A DNA stretch of 64,000 bases from NCBI RefSeq assembly GCF_055900595.2, contig NZ_CM148325.1; one strand, 5' to 3'. Positions 2,859 through 57,563 of the stretch are shown here, one piece after another. The position numbers and the translations under genes were made by a program. The notes beneath the pieces are model-generated. The model was given only the letters and a program-made list of their open reading frames with translations, was not told where the DNA came from and did not search any database. Within the stretch, counting starts at the first letter, position 1. Each line of letters starts with the position of its first letter.

Positions 2859-4223
2859 TTACGTGCAGATTTCGTAGCAAGGGATGTACGCTGAGCCTGG
2901 CAACTTCATACGATGCTGGGCAACAAAACCCTGTAGCAGGTCGTCCATACGACGCATAATCTCTTTATCGCCGTTGATTTTGTAAGGACCAAACTCTTCA
3001 ATGGCGCGAATACCGACTTCTTTTACGTTACCCGCCACAATACCGGAGAAGGCACGACGCAGATCAGCGGCCAAAACTTCTACTGGCTGATCCGGGTACA
3101 GTTTCAGATTAGCCATGTTCTCGTGAGACGGCTCAAACGGCATTTGCAGATCGGGCGCAATACGCATTGACCAGTTAAAGCTGTAGGCATCGCCCGTATC
3201 GCGACGGTTTTCTTTCACCAGCGGCATCGATTTTTTCATCTGACGAGCGACTTCAGCGGCGTCATCAATGATGATGCGATAATGGCGTCGCGCGTTTTCT
3301 CCCAGCGTATGCACGACAAACTCGTCCAGTACGCGGAAATAGTCGGCGCTCTCTTTTGGCCCGGTGAGGATCAATGGTAAAACCTGATCTTTGTTGGCCG
3401 GATTCATTAAAATTCCCAGCAAATACAGCAACTCTTCTGCCGTACCCACACCGCCAGGGAAGATAATGATGCCGTGAGCGATACGAACAAAAGCTTCCAG
3501 ACGTTTTTCGATATCCGGCATGATGATCAATTCGTTGACCAGCGGGTTAGGCGGTTCAGCGGCGATAATCGACGGCTCTGTCATACCAATAAAACGACTG
3601 TCTTTGTAACGCTGCTGTGCGTGTCCGACCGCAGCACCTTTCATCGGCGCTTCCATCGCTCCCGGACCACAGCCGGTGCAGATATTCAGCTCACGCAGGC
3701 CCAGCTGATTCCCGACGCGACGGGCATACAAATACTCGTTTTCGTTAATTGAGTGCCCGCCCCAGCAGACCACCATATTTGGCGCTTCACCGACATGCAG
3801 CGCACGAGCGTTACGCAAGATGGAAAAGACCAGGTTAGTGATGTGGACGGAGTTGTCGAGATTCAGGTTGGGAAAACGAACGGTGTTATGGATTTGCCCG
3901 TAAACGAAGAGAATGTCACGCAGAACCGCGAACAAGTTGGCCTGCAAAGCGCGGATAATACGCCCATCGACAAAAGCATCTTCCGGTGGATTAATCAGTT
4001 CCAGCTTTACGCCGCGTTCACGGCGCAGGACGTTAATATCGAAATTTTCAAAACGAGACAGCAATTCTTTGCTGTTATCGGTCAAACTACCGGAGTTCAG
4101 TACGGCAAGTGAACAGTTGCGAAACAGTTGATAGAGGTCGCTGCTGGCGGTGCGTTTAAGCATATCCACTTCCAGCTGCGACAACATATCCATGGAGCCA
4201 AGCGGGCTAATATGTGTAATCAA
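2859..4223 (-). CDS. ppnN: Nucleotide 5'-monophosphate nucleosidase PpnN (LOG family, YgdH)
   Basis: 454-aa [27 protein letters not shown]... with PGGxGTxEE LOG-type motif. Confidence 0.88.
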
Positions 4224-6006: not shown

Positions 6007-6370
6007 GTCGACAGGGAGTCAGACAACGAAGTGAACATCAGGATGATGACACTTCTGCAGGACACACCAGGAGGGTGTTTCAGGGAAAGGCTTCTGGATG
6101 AAGCGAAGAGGATGACGCAGGACGCGTTAAAGGACACCTCCAGGATGGAGAATGAGAACCGGTCAGGATGATTCGGTGGGTCAGGAAGGCCAGGGACACT
6201 TCAGGATGAAGTATCACATCGGGGTGGTGTGAGCAGGAAGCAATAGTTCAGGATGAACGATTGGCCGCAAGGCCAGAGGAAAAGTTGTCAAGGATGAGCA
6301 GGGAGCAACAAAAGTAGCTGGAATGCTGCGAAACGAACCGGGAGCACTGTGAATACAGTGCTCCCTTTTT
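6007..6370 (+). ncRNA. csrB: CsrB small RNA (CsrA-sequestering)
   Basis: About 360 nt with no long ORF, many CAGGATG/AGGA motifs spaced along it, ending in a GC stem plus T-run; 5' end approximate. Confidence 0.9.
6339..6370 (+). terminator. csrB intrinsic terminator
   Basis: Stem GGGAGCACTG / CAGTGCTCCC followed by TTTTT. Confidence 0.8.
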
Positions 6371-6371
6371 G

Positions 6372-7085
6372 TGCACAGAAAACCCCCAGCTAGGCTGGGG
6401 GTTCCGGAAAGCTTTCAGCTTTGAGCCAGTTATTAAAACCCCTTTTGATTTGTTAAAACACCTTGCGGTCTGGCAACTGCAAGTGTCAAACAAGAAATCA
6501 AAAGGGGGTCCCAATGGGGGACGAAAAGAGCTTAGCGCACACCCGCTGGAACTGTAAATATCACATAGTTTTTGCGCCGAAATACCGAAGACTGGCGTTT
6601 TACGGAGAGAAGCGTAGGGCGATAGGCAGTATTTTGAGAAAGCTGTGTGAGTGGAAAAGCGTACGGATTCTGGAAGCAGAGTGCTGCGCAGATCATATCC
6701 ATATGCTTGTGGAAATCCCACCCAAAATGAGCGTATCCGGCTTTATGGGATATCTGAAAGGGAAAAGCAGTCTGATGCTTTACGAGCAGTTTGGGGATTT
6801 GAAATTCAAATACAGAAACAGGGAGTTCTGGTGCCGAGGGTACTATGTCGATACGGTGGGTAAGAACACGGCGAAGATACAGGACTACATAAAGCACCAG
6901 CTTGAAGAGGATAAAATGGGGGAGCAGTTATCGATTCCATATCCGGGCAGCCCGTTTACGGGCCGTAAGTAACGAAGTTGAATGCAAATGTCAGATCGTA
7001 TGCGCCTGTTAGGGCGCGGCTGGTAACAGAGCCTTACAGGCGCATTTGAAAAACCTCCGGCTATGCCGGAGGATATTTATTTTTA
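6372..7085 (+). mobile_element. IS200-like insertion sequence (IS200/IS605 family); boundaries approximate
   Basis: About 710 bp unit holding a 152-aa Y1-transposase ORF, a perfect palindrome CCCCCAGCTAGGCTGGGGG at the left end and stem-loops at the right end; no inverted terminal repeats, as expected for IS200. Confidence 0.72.
6514..6972 (+). CDS. tnpA: IS200 transposase TnpA (HUH/Y1 type)
   Basis: MGDEKSLAHTRWNCKYHIVFAPKYRR...HIHMLVEIPPKMSVSGFMGYLKGKSS...; 152 aa from the internal Met of ORF 6463..6972. Confidence 0.9.
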   Translation: MGDEKSLAHTRWNCKYHIVFAPKYRRLAFYGEKRRAIGSILRKLCEWKSVRILEAECCADHIHMLVEIPPKMSVSGFMGYLKGKSSLMLYEQFGDLKFKYRNREFWCRGYYVDTVGKNTAKIQDYIKHQLEEDKMGEQLSIPYPGSPFTGRK

Positions 7086-28137: not shown

Positions 28138-29466
28138 CTGAGAGATCCCCTCATAATTTCCCCAAAACGTAACCATGTGTGAATAGATTTTGAGTAAGCA
28201 GGGTTGCAGCCACGAGTGAGTCTTCCCTTGTTATTGTGTAGCCAGAATGCCGCAAAACTTCCATGCCTAAGCGAACTGTTGAGAGTACGTTTCGATTTCT
28301 GACTGTGTTAGCCTGGAAGTGCTTGTCCCAACCTTGTTTCTGAGCATGAACGCCCGCAAGCCAACATGTTAGTTGAAGCATCAGGGCGATTAGCAGCATG
28401 ATATCAAAACGCTCTGAGCTGCTCGTTCGGCTATGGCGTAGGCCTAGTCCGTAGGCAGGACTTTTCAAGTCTCGGAAGGTTTCTTCAATCTGCATTCGCT
28501 TCGAATAGATATTAACAAGTTGTTTGGGTGTTCGAATTTCAACAGGTAAGTTAGTTGCTAGAATCCATGGCTCCTTTGCCGACGCTGAGTAGATTTTAGG
28601 TGACGGGTGGTGACAATGAGTCCGTGTCGAGCGCTGATTTTTTCGGCCTTTAGAGCGAGATTTATACAATAGAATTTGGCATGAGATTGGATTGCTTTTA
28701 GTCAGCCTCTTATAGCCTAAAGTCTTTGAGTGACTAGATGACATATCATGTAAGTTGCTGATAGGTTTCCAGTTTTCCGCTCCTAGGTCTGCATATTGTA
28801 CTTTTCCTCTTACTCGACTTAACCAGTACCAACCCAGCTTCTCAACGGATTTATACCATGGCACTTTAAAGCCAGCATCACTGACAATGAGCGGTGTGGT
28901 GTTACTCGGTAGAATGCTCGCAAGGTCGGCTAGAAATTGGTCATGAGCTTTCTTTGAACATTGCTCTGAAAGCGGGAACGCTTTCTCATAAAGAGTAACA
29001 GAACGACCGTGTAGTGCGACTGAAGCTCGCAATACCATAAGCCGTTTTTGCTCACGGATATCAGACCAGTCAACAAGTACAATGGGCATCGTATTGCCCG
29101 AACAGATAAAGCTAGCATGCCAACGGTATACAGCGAGTCGCTCTTTGTGGAGGTGACGATTACCTAACAATCGGTCGATTCGTTTGATGTTATGTTTTGT
29201 TCTCGCTTTGGTTGGCAGGTTACGGCCAAGTTCGGTAAGAGTGAGAGTTTTACAGTCAAGTAAGGCGTGGCAAGCCAACGTTAAGCTGTTGAGTCGTTTT
29301 AAGTGTAATTCGGGGCAGAATTGGTAAAGAGAGTCGTGTAAAATATCGAGTTCGCACATTTTGTTGTCTGATTATTGATTTTTGGCGAAACCATTTGATC
29401 ATATGACAAGATGTGTATCCACCTTAACTTAATGATTTTTACCAAAATCATTAGGGGATTCATCAG
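28138..29466 (-). mobile_element. IS10 (IS4 family), complete 1329-bp copy
   Basis: Ends CTGAGAGATCCCCTCATAATTTCCCC (inside end) and, on the reverse strand, CTGATGAATCCCCTAATGATTTTGGT (outside end); exact length 1329 bp; 402-aa transposase; flanked by 9-bp direct repeat. Confidence 0.93.
28151..29359 (-). CDS. IS10 transposase
   Basis: 402-aa ORF MCELDILHDSLYQFCPELHLKRLNSLTLACHALLDCK... Confidence 0.93.
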   Translation of the reverse strand: MCELDILHDSLYQFCPELHLKRLNSLTLACHALLDCKTLTLTELGRNLPTKARTKHNIKRIDRLLGNRHLHKERLAVYRWHASFICSGNTMPIVLVDWSDIREQKRLMVLRASVALHGRSVTLYEKAFPLSEQCSKKAHDQFLADLASILPSNTTPLIVSDAGFKVPWYKSVEKLGWYWLSRVRGKVQYADLGAENWKPISNLHDMSSSHSKTLGYKRLTKSNPISCQILLYKSRSKGRKNQRSTRTHCHHPSPKIYSASAKEPWILATNLPVEIRTPKQLVNIYSKRMQIEETFRDLKSPAYGLGLRHSRTSSSERFDIMLLIALMLQLTCWLAGVHAQKQGWDKHFQANTVRNRNVLSTVRLGMEVLRHSGYTITREDSLVAATLLTQNLFTHGYVLGKL

Positions 29467-30576: not shown

Positions 30577-31154
30577 GAGTTCCCCACGTCAGCGGGGATA
30601 AACCTTGCTCGATGCGGGCGTTAACTTTTTTATAGGCGAGTTCCCCGCGCCAGCGGGGATAAACCGCGTAATTTTGTACGCTCAACACGTAACTAAATGA
30701 GTTCCCCGCGCCAGCGGGGATAAACCGATCACCAGTGCGGATTGTTCAAATAGTGCCTGGAGTTCCCCGCGCCAGCGGGGATAAACCGAGAGCTATATCG
30801 CAGCGTTTAACTGGATGACAGAGTTCCCCGCGCCAGCGGGGATAAACCGGTGTTTTTTGCCATCTGAACTGTGGCACGCCGGAGTTCCCCGCGCCAGCGG
30901 GGATAAACCGTCTATAATGTCTCATCCGGGGTTAATTCAATCGAGTTCCCCGCGCCAGCGGGGATAAACCGATCAGCCCCACATCCGGTTTTGCCAGCAA
31001 CGTGAGTTCCCCGCGCCAGCGGGGATAAACCGTAAGATGATCTCACGGAATTGAACGAACTACGGAGTTCCCCGCGCTAGCGGGGATAAACCGGACACAG
31101 AGCGCCGCTATAGCGCCTATGCCAAGAGTTCCCCGCACCAGCGGGAATAAACCA
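30577..31154 (+). CRISPR. Type I-E CRISPR array (CRISPR 2.3-like): 10 repeats, 9 spacers of 32 nt
   Basis: 29-nt repeat GAGTTCCCCGCGCCAGCGGGGATAAACCG at 61-bp period starting 30577, 30638, ... 31126; first and last repeats degenerate; AT-rich leader-like region 30240..30576. Confidence 0.95.
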
Positions 31155-31608: not shown

Positions 31609-31746
31609 ATATTCCTTGTAAAAACAGGGATAAACCGAACTAGTTAAAGTTTTTATTATGTTCCCTGCATCAGCGGGGATAAACCGGACTTGTTATCATT
31701 TTTTAAGTTGTCGAACTTATGTTCCCCGCGCCAGCGGGGATAACCA
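31609..31746 (+). CRISPR. Degenerate mini-array (CRISPR 2.2-like remnant), about 3 repeats
   Basis: Repeats ATGTTCCCTGCATCAGCGGGGATAAACCG (31658) and ATGTTCCCCGCGCCAGCGGGGATAACC (31719) plus a partial upstream copy ending ...CAGGGATAAACCG (31637). Confidence 0.7.
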
Positions 31747-31792
31747 TTCAGGTATGTTCAGGCCGGGCAGTTTCCCGCCCGGCCTTCCTCAC

Positions 31793-43267: not shown

Positions 43268-45073
43268 ATGACGACACAGGTCCCACCTTCCGCGTTGCTT
43301 CCGTTGAACCCGGAGCAACTGGCACGCCTTCAGGCGGCCACGACCGATTTAACTCCCACCCAGCTTGCCTGGGTTTCTGGCTATTTCTGGGGCGTGCTCA
43401 ACCAACAGCCTGCTGCGCTTACAGCGACGCCAGCGCCCGCCCCCGCCGCAGAAATGCCGGGTATAACTATTATCTCCGCTTCGCAAACCGGCAATGCGCG
43501 CCGGGTTGCTGAAACATTACGCGATGATTTATTAGCGGCAAAACTGAACGTTAAGCTGGTGAACGCGGGCGACTATAAATTCAAACAAATCGCCAGCGAA
43601 AAACTGCTCATCGTGGTGACGTCAACGCAAGGTGAAGGGGAACCGCCGGAAGAAGCCGTCGCGCTGCATAAGTTCCTGTTCTCCAAAAAAGCGCCAAAGC
43701 TGGAAAACACTGCATTTGCCGTGTTTAGCCTCGGCGATAGCTCTTATGAATTTTTCTGCCAGTCCGGGAAAGATTTTGACAGCAAGCTGGCGGAACTGGG
43801 CGGTGAACGCCTGCTCGACCGTGTCGATGCCGACGTTGAATACCAGGCTGCTGCCATCGAGTGGCGCGCCCGCGTGGTTGATGTTCTGAAGTCCCGTACG
43901 CCTGTCGCGGCACCTTCGCAATCCGTCGCTACTGGCGCGGTAAATGAAATCCACACCAGCCCGTACAGCAAAGACGCGCCGCTGGTGGCGAGCCTCTCTG
44001 TTAACCAGAAAATTACCGGGCGTAACTCTGAAAAAGACGTTCGCCATATCGAAATTGACTTAGGTGACTCGGGCCTGCGTTACCAGCCGGGTGACGCGCT
44101 GGGCGTCTGGTATCAGAACGATCCGGCACTGGTGAAAGAACTTGTCGAACTGCTGTGGCTGAAAGGCGATGAACCTGTCACCGTCGAGGGCAAAACGTTA
44201 CCTCTGAACGAGGCCCTACAGTGGCACTTCGAACTGACCGTCAACACCGCCAACATCGTTGAGAACTACGCCACGCTTACCCGCAGTGAAACGCTGCTGC
44301 CGCTGGTGGGCGATAAAGCGAAGTTACAGCATTACGCCGCGACGACGCCGATTGTCGATATGGTGCGTTTCTCTCCGGCACAGCTTGACGCTGAAGCCCT
44401 CATTAACTTGCTGCGCCCGCTGACGCCGCGCCTGTATTCCATCGCCTCCTCGCAGGCGGAAGTCGAGAACGAAGTACACGTCACCGTTGGTGTCGTTCGT
44501 TATGACATTGAAGGCCGCGCCCGTGCCGGTGGTGCCTCCAGCTTCCTTGCGGATCGTGTGGAAGAAGAGGGCGAAGTCCGCGTCTTTATCGAACATAACG
44601 ATAACTTCCGCCTGCCCGCTAACCCGGAAACGCCGGTGATTATGATTGGTCCAGGCACCGGCATCGCGCCGTTCCGCGCCTTTATGCAGCAACGTGCTGC
44701 TGACGAAGCGCCGGGCAAAAACTGGCTGTTCTTTGGCAATCCGCACTTTACGGAAGATTTCCTCTACCAGGTGGAGTGGCAGCGCTACGTCAAAGAGGGC
44801 GTGCTGACACGTATTGATCTTGCCTGGTCGCGCGATCAAAAAGAAAAAGTTTACGTACAAGACAAACTGCGCGAACAGGGCGCAGAGCTGTGGCGCTGGA
44901 TCAATGACGGTGCCCACATTTATGTCTGCGGCGACGCTAATCGCATGGCGAAAGACGTTGAACAGGCACTTCTGGAAGTGATTGCCGAATTTGGTGGCAT
45001 GGACACCGAAGCGGCGGATGAATTTTTAAGTGAGCTGCGCGTAGAGCGCCGTTATCAGCGAGATGTCTACTAA
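43268..45073 (+). CDS. cysJ: Sulfite reductase [NADPH] flavoprotein alpha component
   Basis: 601-aa [31 protein letters not shown]... Confidence 0.95.
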
Positions 45074-46785
45074 TGAACGAAAAACATCCAGGGCCTTTAG
45101 TGGTCGAAGGAAAACTGACAGACGCGGAGCGCATGAAGCTTGAGAGCAACTACCTGCGCGGGACCATTGCGGAAGATTTAAACGACGGTCTGACCGGCGG
45201 CTTTAAGGGCGACAACTTCCTGCTGATCCGTTTCCACGGTATGTATCAGCAGGATGACCGCGATATCCGCGCGGAACGTGCTGAACAGAAGCTGGAACCG
45301 CGTCATGCGATGCTGCTGCGCTGCCGTCTGCCGGGTGGGGTGATCACCACTAAACAGTGGCAGGCAATTGATAAATTCGCCGGTGAAAACACCATTTATG
45401 GCAGCATTCGCCTGACCAACCGCCAGACGTTCCAGTTCCACGGCATTCTGAAAAAGAACGTCAAACCGGTGCACCAGATGCTGCATTCGGTCGGTCTTGA
45501 TGCGCTGGCGACCGCCAACGACATGAACCGTAACGTGTTGTGCACCTCGAACCCGTACGAGTCGCAACTGCACGCAGAAGCGTATGAGTGGGCGAAGAAA
45601 ATCTCTGAACATCTGCTGCCGCGTACCCGCGCCTACGCGGAGATCTGGCTCGATCAGGAGAAAGTCGCCACCACCGATGAAGAACCGATCCTCGGTCAGA
45701 CCTACCTGCCGCGTAAATTCAAAACCACGGTAGTGATCCCACCGCAGAACGATATCGATCTGCACGCCAACGACATGAACTTTGTGGCGATCGCGGAAAA
45801 CGGCAAGCTGGTGGGCTTCAACCTGCTGGTGGGCGGTGGGCTTTCTATCGAACACGGCAACAAGAAAACCTACGCCCGCACGGCGAGCGAGTTTGGCTAT
45901 CTGCCACTGGAGCATACGCTGGCGGTGGCGGAAGCGGTCGTTACCACTCAGCGTGACTGGGGTAATCGTACTGACCGTAAAAACGCCAAAACCAAATACA
46001 CGCTGGAGCGCGTGGGTGTTGAGACGTTTAAAGCAGAAGTGGAACGTCGCGCGGGGATCAAATTTGAGCCGATCCGTCCTTATGAATTTACCGGACGCGG
46101 CGATCGTATCGGCTGGGTAAAAGGGATCGACGACAAATGGCACCTGACGCTGTTTATCGAAAATGGCCGAATTCTTGATTATCCGGGGCGTCCGCTGAAA
46201 ACCGGCCTGCTGGAGATCGCAAAGATCCACAGAGGTGATTTCCGCATTACGGCGAACCAGAATCTGATCATCGCTGGTGTACCGGAAAGCGAGAAAGCGA
46301 AGATTGAGAAGATCGCCAAAGAGAGCGGATTGATGAATGCCGTCACGCCGCAGCGCGAAAACTCAATGGCCTGCGTGTCATTCCCGACTTGCCCGTTGGC
46401 GATGGCGGAAGCGGAGCGTTTCCTGCCGTCGTTTATCGATAACATCGATAATTTAATGGCGAAACATGGTGTCAGCGATGAGCACATCGTGATGCGTGTA
46501 ACAGGCTGCCCGAACGGTTGTGGTCGCGCGATGCTGGCGGAAGTTGGCCTGGTGGGTAAAGCGCCTGGGCGCTACAACCTGCATCTTGGTGGCAACCGCA
46601 TTGGGACACGTATCCCACGGATGCATAAAGAAAACATCACCGAGCCGGAAATCCTGGCGACGCTTGATGAACTGATAGGGCGCTGGGTGAAAGAACGTGA
46701 AGCGGGTGAAGGCTTCGGCGACTTTACGGTGCGTGCGGGCATCATTCGCCCGGTGCTCGATCCGGCGCGCGATTTGTGGGATTAA
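45073..46785 (+). CDS. cysI: Sulfite reductase [NADPH] hemoprotein beta component
   Basis: 570-aa [34 protein letters not shown]... Confidence 0.95.
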
Positions 46786-46858: not shown

Positions 46859-47593
46859 ATGTCCAAACTCGATCTAAATGCCCTGAACGAACTGCCGAAG
46901 GTAGATCGCATTCTGGCGCTGGCGGAAACTAACGCCGAGCTTGAAAAACTGGATGCTGAAGGCCGCGTTGCCTGGGCGCTGGATAATCTGCCCGGTGAAT
47001 ATGTACTTTCTTCCAGCTTTGGCATTCAGGCGGCGGTGAGCCTGCATCTGGTGAATCAGATTCGCCCGGATATTCCGGTGATCCTCACCGATACCGGTTA
47101 TCTGTTCCCGGAAACCTACCGCTTTATTGACGAGTTAACGGACAAACTCAAGCTCAACCTGAAAGTGTACCGCGCTACCGAAAGCGCCGCCTGGCAGGAA
47201 GCACGCTACGGCAAACTGTGGGAACAGGGCGTTGAAGGCATTGAAAAGTACAACGATATCAACAAAGTCGAACCGATGAACCGGGCGCTGAAAGAACTAA
47301 ACGCGCAAACGTGGTTTGCTGGCCTGCGCCGTGAACAATCCGGCAGCCGCGCTAATTTACCGGTGCTGGCAATTCAGCGTGGCGTATTTAAGGTGCTGCC
47401 CATTATTGACTGGGATAATCGGACGATATATCAGTATCTGCAAAAACATGGCCTGAAATATCATCCATTATGGGACGAAGGATATTTATCGGTCGGTGAT
47501 ACCCATACAACCCGTAAATGGGAACCTGGTATGGCGGAAGAAGAAACGCGTTTCTTTGGCTTAAAAAGGGAATGTGGGCTGCACGAAGGGTAA
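46859..47593 (+). CDS. cysH: Phosphoadenosine phosphosulfate reductase
   Basis: 244-aa product from [30 protein letters not shown]... Confidence 0.93.
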
Positions 47594-47855
47594 ATATTGC
47601 CGGATAAAATAAACGCCTCTGTCAGAAATGATGGGGCGTTTTTATTTTGCGAGCAGCATTCCGGCATTTAAACGTGAATATAGCAAGGGAAATCAACAGT
47701 TATAGAATGGCGTCGGGTGCTTGAGGCTGTCTGGCGTTGAGCATTCGCGAGGTTCCAGATGGACAAAAGCCCCAGGCGATATTTCTATCAACCTGAGGCT
47801 CGCGTTCGAACGTAGCAATTCGGATGTTAGTCTCTTCTTTGCAGGGAGGCAAGAC

Positions 47856-48008
47856 ATGCTGACAAAATATGCCCTTGTGGCAATCATCGTACTGTGTTGT
47901 ACAGTACTGGGATTCACGCTGATGGTAGGCGACTCGTTGTGTGAGTTGAGTATCAGAGAACGTGGTATGGAGTTTAAGGCAGTTCTCGCTTACGAATCGA
48001 AGAAGTAG
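47856..48008 (+). CDS. Hok/Gef-family type I toxin peptide (hokX-like)
   Basis: 50 aa [50 protein letters not shown]: one TM helix plus Hok C-terminal signature; GGGAGG RBS at 47844; GC hairpin ACGCGGGGGTAAAACCCCGCGT follows the stop. Confidence 0.7.
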
Positions 48009-48246
48009 CCACCACGCGGGGGTAAAACCCCGCGTATTGAATTGTGATGGTTTGGTCTCCTGCACCCTTTTTTTCATTTATATTGTTTTTGTGAATATTA
48101 TGCCTGTGTTTATTATTTATATATATCACCAATGAAAATCATTGAATTATTTACAATGTAAATATTTTATTGAACGATATATATCACAGATAATTCTTAA
48201 TATATGCGTAAATATCCTTTAAGTTTTACTGAAGGATAAAAACATT

Positions 48247-50904
48247 GTGACTTTCTTTGATTTCTGGGGAAAAACCCGACGTGGCGAGAAAGAGGGTGGC
48301 GACGATTATCACCTTCTTTGCTGGCATTCGCTGGATGTAGCCGCGATAGGCTATTTAATGGTCAAAAACAACTGTTTCGGGCTGGCTGACTATTTTCGTC
48401 AATTAGGTTTCGCTGACACGGATCAGGCAGCACAATTTTTCGCCTGGTTGTTGTGCTGGCACGATACTGGAAAATTTGCCCGCTCATTTCAGCAACTTTA
48501 CCTGCACCCACAACTCAAGGTTCCGGAAGGCGCAAGAAAGAATTACGAAAAGATCTCTCATTCAACGCTGGGTTACTGGTTGTGGCATCATTATTTAATT
48601 GAATGTGAAGAGTTGCTTCCTTCATCTTCACTCTCTTTGCGCAAACTTAAACGGGTAATAGATATGTGGATGCCCGTGACGACCGGGCATCATGGTCGGC
48701 CTCCTGACCGTATCGATGAACTGGACAACTTTCTGCCTGAAGACAAAGCTGCCGCACGAGATTTTCTCCTTGCAATCAAGTCACTGTTTCCGCTCATAGA
48801 GATCCCCACATTCTGGGATGATGACGAGGGCGTTGAACTTATAAAACATCTTTCCTGGTATATATCTGCAACCGTCGTACTCGCAGACTGGACGGGATCG
48901 TCAACGCGGTTTTTTCCACGCGTCGCACATGTAATGGATATTAAAGATTACTGGCAGAATGCTTTAGCTCAGGCTCAAAACGCATTAACCGTCTTTCCTC
49001 CAAAAGCAGAAACCGCACCTTTCACTGGAATTAACACGCTGTTTCCTTTTATTGAGAACCCAACACCGTTACAGCAAAAGGTGCTGGATCTGGATATCAG
49101 CCAGCCAGAACCGCAGTTGTTTATTCTGGAAGATGTGACTGGCGCAGGTAAAACAGAAGCGGCGCTTATCCTGGCGCACAGGTTGATGTCTGCGGGTAAC
49201 GCTCAGGGGCTGTTTTTTGGTTTGCCGACAATGGCAACGGCCAATGCCATGTACGATAGGCTGGTCAAAACCTGGCTTGCTTTCTATTCGCCGGAATCCC
49301 GCCCCAGCCTGGTGCTGGCACACAGCGCTCGTTCGCTAATGGATCGCTTTAACGCATCGCTGTGGTCTGGTGATTTTGTGGGGTCAGAAGAACCGGATGA
49401 ACAAGCGTTCAGTCAGGGATGTGCGGCCTGGTTTGCTGGCAGTAACAAGAAGGCGTTGCTGGCTGAAATTGGCGTCGGCACGCTGGATCAGGCGATGATG
49501 GCGGTGATGCCGTTCAAACATAATAATCTGCGGCTTCTGGGGCTGAGTAACAAAATCCTGCTAGCCGATGAGATCCACGCCTGTGACGCTTATATGTCGT
49601 GCATTCTTGAAGGGCTGATCGAGCGGCAGGCGCGTGGCGGAAACAGCGTTATTTTGCTTTCTGCTACGTTGTCTCAACAGCAGCGTGACAAACTCGTCGC
49701 CGCCTTTGCGCGTGGTGCAGAGGGCCAGCAAGAAGCTCCGTTGCTGGAAAAAGATGATTATCCCTGGCTGACGCATGTCACGAAATCCGATGTGCATTCG
49801 CACCGGGTAGCGACGCGCAAAGACGTTGAGCGCAGCGTGAGTGTGGGTTGGCTTCATAGCGAACAAGAGTGTATTGCGCGTATCGAATCGGCGGTAAGTC
49901 AGGGGAAATGCATCGCCTGGATTCGGAATTCTGTCGATGACGCCATCCAGGTTCATCGTCAGCTGCTTGCCCGCGGCGTCATTCCTGCTTCCAGCCTTTC
50001 ACTTTTTCATAGCCGCTTTGCTTTTAGCGATCGCCAGCGAATTGAAACGGAGACGCTGGCACGCTTTGGTAAAGAAGACTGTTCACAGCGTGCCGGAAAA
50101 GTCCTCATTTGTACTCAGGTCCTGGAGCAGAGCGTCGACTGCGACCTGGACGAAATGATTTCCGACCTTGCCCCTGTTGATTTACTGATCCAGCGAGCAG
50201 GGCGATTACAGCGACATATCCGCGATATTAATGGTCAGTTAAAGCGTGACGGTAAAGACGAGCGTCACCCTCCTGTATTGCTGATTCTGGCCCCCGTCTG
50301 GGACGACTCTCCGGGTGAAGAATGGTTTGCCAGTGCCATGCGTAACAGTGCATTTGTCTATCCCGATCATGGGCGAATCTGGTTGACGCAGCGTGTGCTG
50401 CGTGAACAAGGCGCGATTCAGATGCCACACTCAGCCCGGCTTCTGATTGAATCAGTCTACGGTGAGGACGTGGTAATGCCGGAAGGGTTTGCCCGCAGCG
50501 AGCAGGAGCAAGTGGGCAAATACTACTGCGATCGTTCAATGGCTAATAAGTTTGTGCTGAACTTCAGGCCCGGCTATGCCGCCAATATCAACGATTACCT
50601 TCCGGAAAAACTGTCGACACGTCTGGCTGAGGAGTCTGTTTCCTTGTGGTTGGCTACCTGTATTGACGGTGTGGTGAAGCCTTATGCCACTGGCGCTCAC
50701 GCATGGGAAATGAGCGTTGTCAGAGCGCGCCAAAGCTGGTGGAAAAAACATCGGGATGAGTTTTCTTTACTGGAAGGGGATGCGTTCAGGCAGTGGTGCG
50801 TTGAACAGCGGCAAGATCCGGAGATGGTAAATGTGATTTTAGTTACCGATGACGAAAGTTGCGGGTATTCGGCTACGGAGGGATTGATTGGCAAGGTTGG
50901 TTGA
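48247..50904 (+). CDS. cas3: Cas3 HD-nuclease/helicase (type I-E)
   Basis: 885-aa ORF (GTG start) with HD motifs, Walker A TGAGKTEAAL and DEIH box. Confidence 0.9.
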   Translation: MTFFDFWGKTRRGEKEGGDDYHLLCWHSLDVAAIGYLMVKNNCFGLADYFRQLGFADTDQAAQFFAWLLCWHDTGKFARSFQQLYLHPQLKVPEGARKNYEKISHSTLGYWLWHHYLIECEELLPSSSLSLRKLKRVIDMWMPVTTGHHGRPPDRIDELDNFLPEDKAAARDFLLAIKSLFPLIEIPTFWDDDEGVELIKHLSWYISATVVLADWTGSSTRFFPRVAHVMDIKDYWQNALAQAQNALTVFPPKAETAPFTGINTLFPFIENPTPLQQKVLDLDISQPEPQLFILEDVTGAGKTEAALILAHRLMSAGNAQGLFFGLPTMATANAMYDRLVKTWLAFYSPESRPSLVLAHSARSLMDRFNASLWSGDFVGSEEPDEQAFSQGCAAWFAGSNKKALLAEIGVGTLDQAMMAVMPFKHNNLRLLGLSNKILLADEIHACDAYMSCILEGLIERQARGGNSVILLSATLSQQQRDKLVAAFARGAEGQQEAPLLEKDDYPWLTHVTKSDVHSHRVATRKDVERSVSVGWLHSEQECIARIESAVSQGKCIAWIRNSVDDAIQVHRQLLARGVIPASSLSLFHSRFAFSDRQRIETETLARFGKEDCSQRAGKVLICTQVLEQSVDCDLDEMISDLAPVDLLIQRAGRLQRHIRDINGQLKRDGKDERHPPVLLILAPVWDDSPGEEWFASAMRNSAFVYPDHGRIWLTQRVLREQGAIQMPHSARLLIESVYGEDVVMPEGFARSEQEQVGKYYCDRSMANKFVLNFRPGYAANINDYLPEKLSTRLAEESVSLWLATCIDGVVKPYATGAHAWEMSVVRARQSWWKKHRDEFSLLEGDAFRQWCVEQRQDPEMVNVILVTDDESCGYSATEGLIGKVG

Positions 50905-56862: not shown

Positions 56863-57563
56863 GTGTTCCCCGCGCTAGCGGGGATAAACCGGTAATAAAT
56901 TCTTTGTGCGCGAAGAAATGAAGGTGTTCCCCGCGCTAGCGGGGATAAACCACGTGGCAACAATATTCCGCTGCTTTAACGCAAGTGTTCCCCGCGCTAG
57001 CGGGGATAAACCGGCGGCGATCATCTTTGACGCCGACCTGTTTCGGTGTTCCCCGCGCTAGCGGGGATAAACCGCGCTACCACAGGTCGCTACCGCATGG
57101 GCTTCAGTGTTCCCCGCGCTAGCGGGGATAAACCGCGGTCATATTGCGCCTGCACAGACTCACTGCGGTGTTCCCCGCGCTAGCGGGGATAAACCGGGGC
57201 AGGGAAATCACGGGCACGGTGACGATATGTGTTCCCCGCGCTAGCGGGGATAAACCGCCAAAACCATGACGTTCTCACTATCGGATGTGGTGTTCCCCGC
57301 GCTAGCGGGGATAAACCGTGGCCACCGGCAAAGAAAAAACGGAGTTCTGGCGTGTTCCCCGCGCCAGCGGGGATAAACCGGAAACTGTACTTGATGCGCT
57401 GAAAGCGATGGGGTGTTCCCCGCGCCAGCGGGGATAAACCGATGGCCCAGGGATTTGTTCAGTCCAGCGTGCCGTGTTCCCCGCGCCAGCGGGGATAAAC
57501 CGCTCTCGGTTCTGGGGTACTGTTACCCATAACTGAGCTCCCCCGCGTCAGCGGGGAACTCCC
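56863..57563 (+). CRISPR. Type I-E CRISPR array (CRISPR I): 12 repeats, 11 spacers
   Basis: 29-nt repeat GTGTTCCCCGCGC(T/C)AGCGGGGATAAACCG at 61-bp period (one 33-nt spacer); terminal repeat degenerate (GAGCTCCCCCGCGTCAGCGGGGAACTCCC). Confidence 0.96.

Follow-up and report, generated by a model that had tools for sequence, protein, structure and literature searches.

An apparently intact copy of the chromosomal Escherichia coli hokX/sokX type I toxin-antitoxin locus between cysH and cas3

The DNA considered here, referred to below as the window, is a stretch of 64,000 nucleotides (nt) of contig NZ_CM148325.1 (NCBI RefSeq assembly GCF_055900595.2), read 5' to 3' on one strand. Its relevant part carries, in this order, cysI (45073-46785), cysH (ending at 47593), a 650-nt spacer and the open reading frame (ORF) of a type I-E cas3, which starts at 48247. 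The spacer holds a small toxin gene, hokX, and, on the opposite strand, a small RNA gene, sokX. An initial annotation of this DNA had proposed a type I toxin-antitoxin locus between cysH and cas3, and this proposal is borne out by Pfam and Rfam matches, by homology to SokX of E. coli K-12 and by the annotation in RefSeq. It is very probable that the locus is an intact copy of the chromosomal E. coli hokX/sokX system and that it acts like hok/sok of plasmid R1. The features on which the argument draws are the following, with coordinates counted from the first letter of the window.

47703..47708, plus strand: TAGAAT, probable -10 box of the hokX promoter, 7 nt before the mRNA 5' end; read from the sequence, with a putative function
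47715..~48074, plus strand: full-length hokX mRNA of ~360 nt (leader, toxin ORF and 3' untranslated region, UTR); predicted ends, the 5' end being the start of the Rfam RF01794 match and the 3' end the fbi element with its T-run
47715..47728, plus strand: tac element GGGUGCUUGAGGCU at the mRNA 5' end; from predicted folds, invariant in nine alleles
47737..47746, plus strand: UUGAGCAUUC, to which tac is predicted to switch when the 3' end is gone, equivalent to the ucb/metastable partner of R1; from in-silico folds
47759..47816, minus strand: gene for the SokX antisense RNA, ~58 nt; mapped from K-12 sokX (b4701), with ends good to ~2 nt
47824..47852, minus strand: probable sok promoter; -35 box TTGCCT (47852..47847), 17-nt spacer, -10 box TAACAT (47829..47824), start G at 47816
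47824..47862, plus strand: 12-codon upstream ORF (uORF), an uncertain candidate for a mok substitute, taken from the ORF list; its TGA overlaps the hok start (ATGCTGA)
47844..47849, plus strand: hokX Shine-Dalgarno sequence GGGAGG, 6 nt upstream of the ATG; read directly from the sequence
47856..48008, plus strand: hokX toxin ORF, 50 amino acids (aa), single-pass membrane peptide of the Hok/Gef family; ATG at 47856, TAG at 48006-48008
48014..48035, plus strand: GC-rich post-stop hairpin ACGCGGGG-GUAAAA-CCCCGCGU; from minimum-energy and centroid folds
48054..48067, plus strand: fbi (fold-back inhibition) element GGUCUCCUGCACCC, predicted partner of tac; from folds, with an RNAduplex energy of -21.8 kcal/mol
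48068..48074, plus strand: run of 7 U, the probable transcript end, at which the variable CRISPR-Cas region has its left border; read from the sequence

The toxin gene and its identity

The toxin ORF begins and ends where the initial annotation had placed it, and the strong ribosome-binding site claimed for it is the GGGAGG listed above; in predicted folds of the transcript, this Shine-Dalgarno sequence is partly base-paired with the end of the hok ORF (47989-47993). Membership in the Hok family, for which a profile search had been suggested as a check, is clear: Pfam PF01848 (HOK_GEF) matches the peptide with 39.1 bits against a cutoff of 22 bits (E=5.7e-10; profile positions 1-42 of 42), and the NCBIfam HokA and Hok models match it with E=2.6e-14 and 3.6e-10, respectively, both under the strict equivalog/subfamily cutoffs. 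The reading of the peptide as one with a single transmembrane segment likewise holds, there being one hydrophobic stretch at residues ~5-25, with its peak at residues 6-24 and a Kyte-Doolittle 19-residue mean of up to 2.76. The sequence traits of the Hok/Gef family are present, namely a length of about 50 aa, a single N-terminal membrane helix, a conserved cysteine and the C-terminal AYE motif, and residues C14, L28, C29, E30, A45, Y46 and E47 are unchanged in an alignment with HokE and HokC.

Purifying selection acts on the peptide. Across nine alleles from different lineages, all nine variable sites within the ORF are synonymous and none is nonsynonymous; with 35 synonymous and 115 nonsynonymous sites in the ORF (150 in total), the probability of such an outcome by chance is ~2e-6. 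The protein stays the same across phylogroups in which the flanking DNA has diverged by ~6%, and pN/pS, which is 0 among the E. coli alleles, is no more than 0.17-0.27 against homologues from Atlantibacter, Klebsiella and Yokenella. The wholly synonymous variation and the low pN/pS argue that the peptide is made and that it matters. A chance ORF with a superficial likeness to Hok is ruled out by the Pfam, NCBIfam and Rfam matches, by occurrence in thousands of genomes and in several genera, and by the synonymous pattern.

The peptide is identical to WP_000956458.1, which RefSeq names 'Hok/Gef family protein' and whose neighbours there are cysH and cas3 or, where the cas genes are missing, cysH and iap. 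The ORF and 3' UTR are 100% identical to those of E. coli strain 2013C-4282. At the homologous spot in K-12 MG1655, on the strand opposite cysH and cas3, the small RNA gene sokX (b4701) is annotated, and SokX RNA has been detected in K-12 in every condition tested (bioRxiv 10.1101/2024.06.20.599902, a 2024 preprint). The hokX/sokX locus is, then, already known: it has been named, RefSeq annotates it, and its position next to CRISPR-Cas genes of type I-E has been published. A hokX homologue was located in the cysH-iap interval (PMC7232551), and work on the I-E cas region found hok and sokX beside cysH in 90% of urinary isolates, with sokX alone in the rest, as in K-12 (PMC12736100, 2025). Among 5426 complete E. 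coli genomes, a 661-nt intergenic query comprising leader, ORF and the region upstream of cas3 was matched, at least in part, in 5425, and the ORF with its 3' UTR in 4220. No match was found on any E. coli plasmid; the sole 100% match in the plasmid collection is a 4.9-Mb record that is probably a chromosome. The copy in the window has escaped the lesions by which other copies are inactivated: its post-stop hairpin holds no insertion sequence (IS) element IS186 or IS421, its leader no IS1, and it is not truncated as in K-12. The relevance of the locus lies mainly in its correct annotation, with little beyond.

The leader, SokX and the fold of the transcript

The Rfam hok/sok leader model RF01794 matches 47715-47871 over its full length (1-157) with 103.3 bits, against a gathering score of 59 (E=1e-23). 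This model, labelled 'sok', has the orientation of hok, and its K-12 matches run antisense to sokC, sokE and sokX as annotated; the strand of a match should therefore not be read as that of Sok. The final AUG of the model is aligned with an ATG at 47869, which is alignment noise, that codon being out of frame and opening a 17-aa peptide unrelated to Hok.

The initial annotation had expected a sok-like RNA on the opposite strand at about 47760..47860. An antisense gene does cross the leader, running from 47816 to 47759, but 47817-47860 holds its promoter rather than its transcript. The RNA is identical to K-12 sokX at 53 of 59 positions, all differences lying within the 5' tail, and it is predicted to fold into a single-stranded 5' tail of ~15 nt, a hairpin and a terminal UUUU (-26.4 kcal/mol, z = -3.75). 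Its probable promoter has a -10 box that ends, on the minus strand, 7 nt before the start G at 47816, and both the -35 and -10 boxes are conserved in the hokX-like loci of Escherichia, Pseudocitrobacter, Klebsiella, Atlantibacter and Yokenella, with only 1 of 39 positions of the promoter block variable among E. coli alleles. The minus-strand search for a sok promoter and terminator that had been proposed thus yields a conserved TTGCCT-17-TAACAT and a hairpin followed by UUUU, but a consensus scan missed the promoter. Variation among E. coli alleles is concentrated at leader positions 47800-47815, which encode the SokX 5' tail: two classes of allele and a 1-nt indel occur there. The hairpin of Sok and its promoter hardly vary.

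For hokX itself, the TAGAAT box is unchanged in all nine alleles, while the surrounding 68 nt vary at 20 positions, and a -10-like box stands at the same distance from GGGTGC in hokC (TATAAT) and in hokE (TAAGAT). The hokX promoter is probably weak, because it has no conserved -35 box.

Closure of the mRNA by pairing of tac with fbi is the defining trait of hok mRNAs in the R1 model (PMC9841398), and the complementarity is present here: in both the minimum-energy and the centroid folds of 47715-48077, GGGUGC (47715-20) pairs with GCACCC (48062-67) and GAGGCU (47723-28) with GGUCUC (48054-59). Natural substitutions in the fbi of E. coli alleles (48056 U>C and 48063 C>U) merely swap G-U and G-C pairs. 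For a wider comparison, hok loci were retrieved from genome contigs by a search with the 18-nt tac sequence, so that tac is fixed by the search pattern and only one-sided variation of the tac/fbi pair is visible; matches in Pseudomonas, Kribbella, Roseovarius and others, which lacked a Hok ORF, were discarded as chance. GCACCC closes the 3' partner in 19 of the 20 other hok loci that share tac; in the remaining one, the first of three Photobacterium loci (L038), only a weak duplex is found, at stop+3. All 20 have a post-stop hairpin, with its position kept and its stem sequences differing. The 5'/3' complementarity, the U-rich tail and the GC-rich post-stop hairpin recur in Escherichia, Pseudocitrobacter, Atlantibacter, Klebsiella, Yokenella, Yersinia, Aeromonas and Photobacterium.

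The GC-rich fold-back hairpin of the initial annotation is real (48014-48035), but it is not the fold-back inhibition element, which lies 20 nt downstream at 48054-48067. By analogy with the R1 model (PMC9841398), this hairpin is probably the stopping point of 3' trimming. This hairpin is a recurrent insertion target: in K-12 hokE, K-12 hokC and hokX of strain CH4796, IS186/IS421 sits in the hairpin loop or 3' arm (GGGG-N5/6-CCCC; insertion points near 2008, 732 and 2675 in the coordinates of compared loci L003, L004 and L005), which severs fbi from the mRNA. The hairpin of the window is uninterrupted. When the mRNA is truncated in silico at 48040, 48036 or 48030, tac is predicted to shift to a 10-bp stem with 47737-47746 and, on thermodynamic prediction, a new hairpin arises at 47795-47834, the loop of which overlaps the target of the SokX 5' tail. 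Inspection of this predicted target loop by eye did not clearly reveal a YUNR U-turn motif.

Several observations weigh against a complete and working system. When 47550-48300 was scanned for consensus promoters and terminators, both the hok and the sok promoter were missed and the hok 3' end showed no terminator; each promoter agrees with the consensus at only 8 of 12 positions, and the placements given rest instead on position and conservation. The z-score of the whole-mRNA fold is modest (-2.41). The ORF is absent from ~22% of complete E. coli genomes, K-12 included, and hokX of some other strains carries insertions of IS1 or IS421, so that the locus is dispensable. Finally, the canonical mok start is missing from E. 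coli hokX. The hokX-like locus of Klebsiella pneumoniae (L045) has GAGG-N7-ATG at -51, in frame with hok, where E. coli hokX has TCG, and the conserved GAGG of hokX (47795-98) is followed by no start codon at Shine-Dalgarno distance. The 1-nt indel polymorphism just downstream of the mok-start site (~47813) shows no frame constraint, and the sole upstream ORF that reaches the hok start is the 12-codon uORF, which lacks a clear Shine-Dalgarno sequence. A 95-aa upstream ORF in frame with hok, opening at TTG 47721, was rejected as mok, its frame being broken by the same indel among alleles.

One rival explanation is a structurally preserved, translationally silent remnant, in which, with the mok start lost, HokX would not be produced in useful quantity and the locus would survive as a small RNA gene or as neutral DNA, in the manner of the inactivated K-12 hok loci. 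The change of the Klebsiella mok start to TCG would fit this explanation, as would the requirement of mok translation up to the hok start region for Hok synthesis in R1 (PMC9841398), the description of the five K-12 hok loci as non-functional (PMC7232551), the loss of the hokX ORF with retention of sokX in K-12, and the IS1 and IS421 insertions in certain strains. Silence is difficult to reconcile, however, with nine of nine variable ORF sites being synonymous and the protein remaining the same beside flanks that differ by ~6%, with a pN/pS of at most 0.27 out to other genera, and with the conservation of the strong hok Shine-Dalgarno sequence, tac, fbi and the sok promoter. Moreover, translational coupling could come from the uORF, which ends on the hok ATG: mok of R1 need be translated only up to the hok start region, and a 12-codon uORF could therefore serve. 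This uORF occurs in all the hokX-like loci of Escherichia, Pseudocitrobacter and Klebsiella and has a different length in Atlantibacter and Yokenella; its conservation may stem from the promoter, because its ATG lies inside the sok -10 box. A silent remnant is accordingly judged quite unlikely. Two further readings, likewise unlikely, are that the 12-codon uORF has replaced canonical mok coupling, and that the hokX promoter and leader feed cas3, with SokX modulating the cas3 mRNA, most clearly in K-12-type strains. The favoured reading remains an intact hokX/sokX locus of the R1 kind.

The cysH flank and cas3

The initial annotation had set the locus inside an AT-rich region and had described its position next to cas3 as a notable juxtaposition of two defence or addiction modules. 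Neither statement can be upheld. G+C content is 47-53% across the hok locus and falls to 20-26% only from ~48068 on, where the AT-rich tract begins directly after the hok transcript end. The juxtaposition is neither new nor special, as hokX is found beside cysH in Escherichia, Pseudocitrobacter and Atlantibacter regardless of cas, and the arrangement is species-wide in E. coli and has been published (PMC12736100, PMC7232551).

Every RefSeq genome examined shows hokX following cysH, as do E. albertii, E. whittamii, other Escherichia species, Pseudocitrobacter and Atlantibacter; cas3 or iap lies downstream. UPEC129, which has no cas genes, is homologous to the window up to 48073 and again from 57573, just ahead of iap, the gap corresponding to a 9.5-kb CRISPR-Cas deletion; K-12 is homologous up to 47858, the G of the hok start codon, where the K-12 variant of the cas3 region begins (position 3312 of K-12 locus L002). 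Identical hokX is present in strains without the whole cas region (UPEC129, Eco-15 and SCU-112), and hokX without the cas region occurs likewise in E. whittamii and Atlantibacter. With hokX persisting where cas is missing, and K-12 keeping cas beside a truncated hokX, hokX is, as judged from these sequence comparisons, part of the cysH flank and not of cas. The adjacency to cas3 reflects the fixed cysH-side border of a region in which CRISPR-Cas has been gained, lost or replaced, and not a functional pairing. In this capacity, hokX serves as an exact cysH-side border marker of CRISPR-Cas loss and replacement.

A closer tie between the two systems, whereby hokX would be an addiction module stabilizing the CRISPR-Cas island or would otherwise be coupled to cas3, for example by read-through transcription, is highly improbable. 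The two genes are indeed co-oriented and hokX is just ~170 nt upstream; the U-run at its 3' end is not preceded by a local terminator hairpin, its stem partner being 340 nt away; and in K-12 the 91 nt that separate the hokX promoter and leader from cas3 contain nothing resembling a terminator. Nevertheless, the same hokX occurs in strains that lack the entire cas region, so it does not prevent cas loss, and cas is retained in K-12 without the hok ORF. The deletion border falls exactly at the hokX 3' end, which suggests separate units, and no functional link between hokX and cas appeared in the literature found.

The arrangement in K-12 MG1655 deserves separate mention. There (L002 3220-3470, minus strand), the hokX promoter, leader, sokX and hok ATG lie 91 nt upstream of cas3, and within these 91 nt falls the CRP site TATGAGCAGCATCGAA that has been published for the 'cas3 promoter' (PMC7019758). 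A transcript of K-12 that joins the hok leader to cas3 under the control of SokX seems possible, by way of speculation, and the literature searched contains no discussion of it. If the hok leader and cas3 did form one transcript in K-12, this would amount to an unnoticed layer of cas3 regulation, a speculative prospect.

Other features of the window may be noted briefly. The cysH terminator lies at 47617-46, and a weak Rfam match to ctRNA_p42d at 47609-47650 is this terminator. Relative to strain PSJ-42, the window has one extra T between 48204 and 48250, in the T-run at ~48235-48238, as a result of which the RefSeq-style cas3 start at ATG 48204 meets a stop after 11 codons; RefSeq calls the matching cas3 of strain 2013C-4282 frameshifted, and GTG 48247 still opens an 885-aa cas3 ORF with a conserved N-terminus (FWGK...). 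Two type I-E CRISPR arrays are present: array 1 (30579-31154 and 31660-31747; 10 repeats and 2 degenerate ones), ~17 kb upstream of cysH, and array 2 (56865-57502; 11 repeats), between cas2 and iap, most repeats of which bear a C>T change relative to array 1. Beside the first array lies an IS10-like element (28151-29421) with a 402-aa minus-strand ORF and an RNA-OUT match of 97 bits at 29352-29421. Finally, CsrB (374 bits) and, directly after it, STnc490 (146 bits) occupy 6016-6504.

Proposed mechanism and known hok systems

On the R1 paradigm, the hokX/sokX locus would work as follows. A weak constitutive promoter would yield a stable mRNA of ~360 nt (47715..~48074), the 5' end of which (tac) would pair with its 3' end (fbi), giving a closed form that would escape both translation and antisense binding. 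As the 3' end is slowly trimmed, probably as far as the GC hairpin at 48014-35, fbi would be lost, whereupon tac would refold onto 47737-46 and the leader hairpin at 47795-47834 would arise. The short, unstable SokX (47816->47759, minus strand) would then bind the refolded leader through its single-stranded 5' tail, and the pairing would block translation and expose the duplex to cleavage, presumably by RNase III as in R1. Were the supply of SokX to drop, the 50-aa HokX would be made, by putative translational coupling, and would enter the inner membrane, where its expected toxicity would consist in a collapse of the membrane potential.

The nearest relatives of the locus are the other E. coli copies of hokX/sokX, which share with the window the site (from cysH to cas3 or iap), the peptide and the leader. 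Private to the window is an A>G at 47739, which turns a U-A pair of the stem between tac and 47737-46 into U-G. The K-12 copy is reduced to promoter, leader, sokX and the hok ATG, whereas the window has the complete ORF, 3' UTR and fbi.

The closest paralogue is hokE/sokE of K-12, situated at another chromosomal site (ybdK-entD), with HokE showing 78% aa identity to HokX. It shares with hokX the layout of tac, sok, Shine-Dalgarno sequence and post-stop hairpin, as well as an ATG inside the sok -10 box; this upstream ATG is in frame with hok in hokE, and a 4-nt difference puts that of hokX out of frame. K-12 hokE also carries IS186 in its post-stop hairpin, which is intact in hokX of the window. 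In E. coli strain 7_11_88A (L008 701-1504), two tandem, IS-free copies of hokE lie between ybdK and entD, and a RefSeq 'hypothetical protein' opposite the hokE leader there is probably an annotation artefact over sokE.

More distant is hokC (gef)/mokC/sokC, with HokC 39% identical to HokX in aa sequence; the first 19 nt of the mRNA (tac), the GCACCC of fbi, the post-stop hairpin and the Rfam leader model are shared. An in-frame mokC (GAGG-N8-ATG) is annotated in hokC, and hokX has no start codon at that place.

Finally, hok/sok of R1 and hokX/sokX are alike in their Hok-family peptide, in a cis-antisense RNA against the leader, in tac/fbi closure and in predicted refolding (PMC9841398), the plasmid Hok proteins being ~40-43% identical to HokX. 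They differ in two respects: mok of R1 is 70 codons long and carries its own Shine-Dalgarno sequence, a canonical mok start being absent from hokX, and hokX, being chromosomal, has no role in plasmid maintenance, unlike hok/sok of R1.

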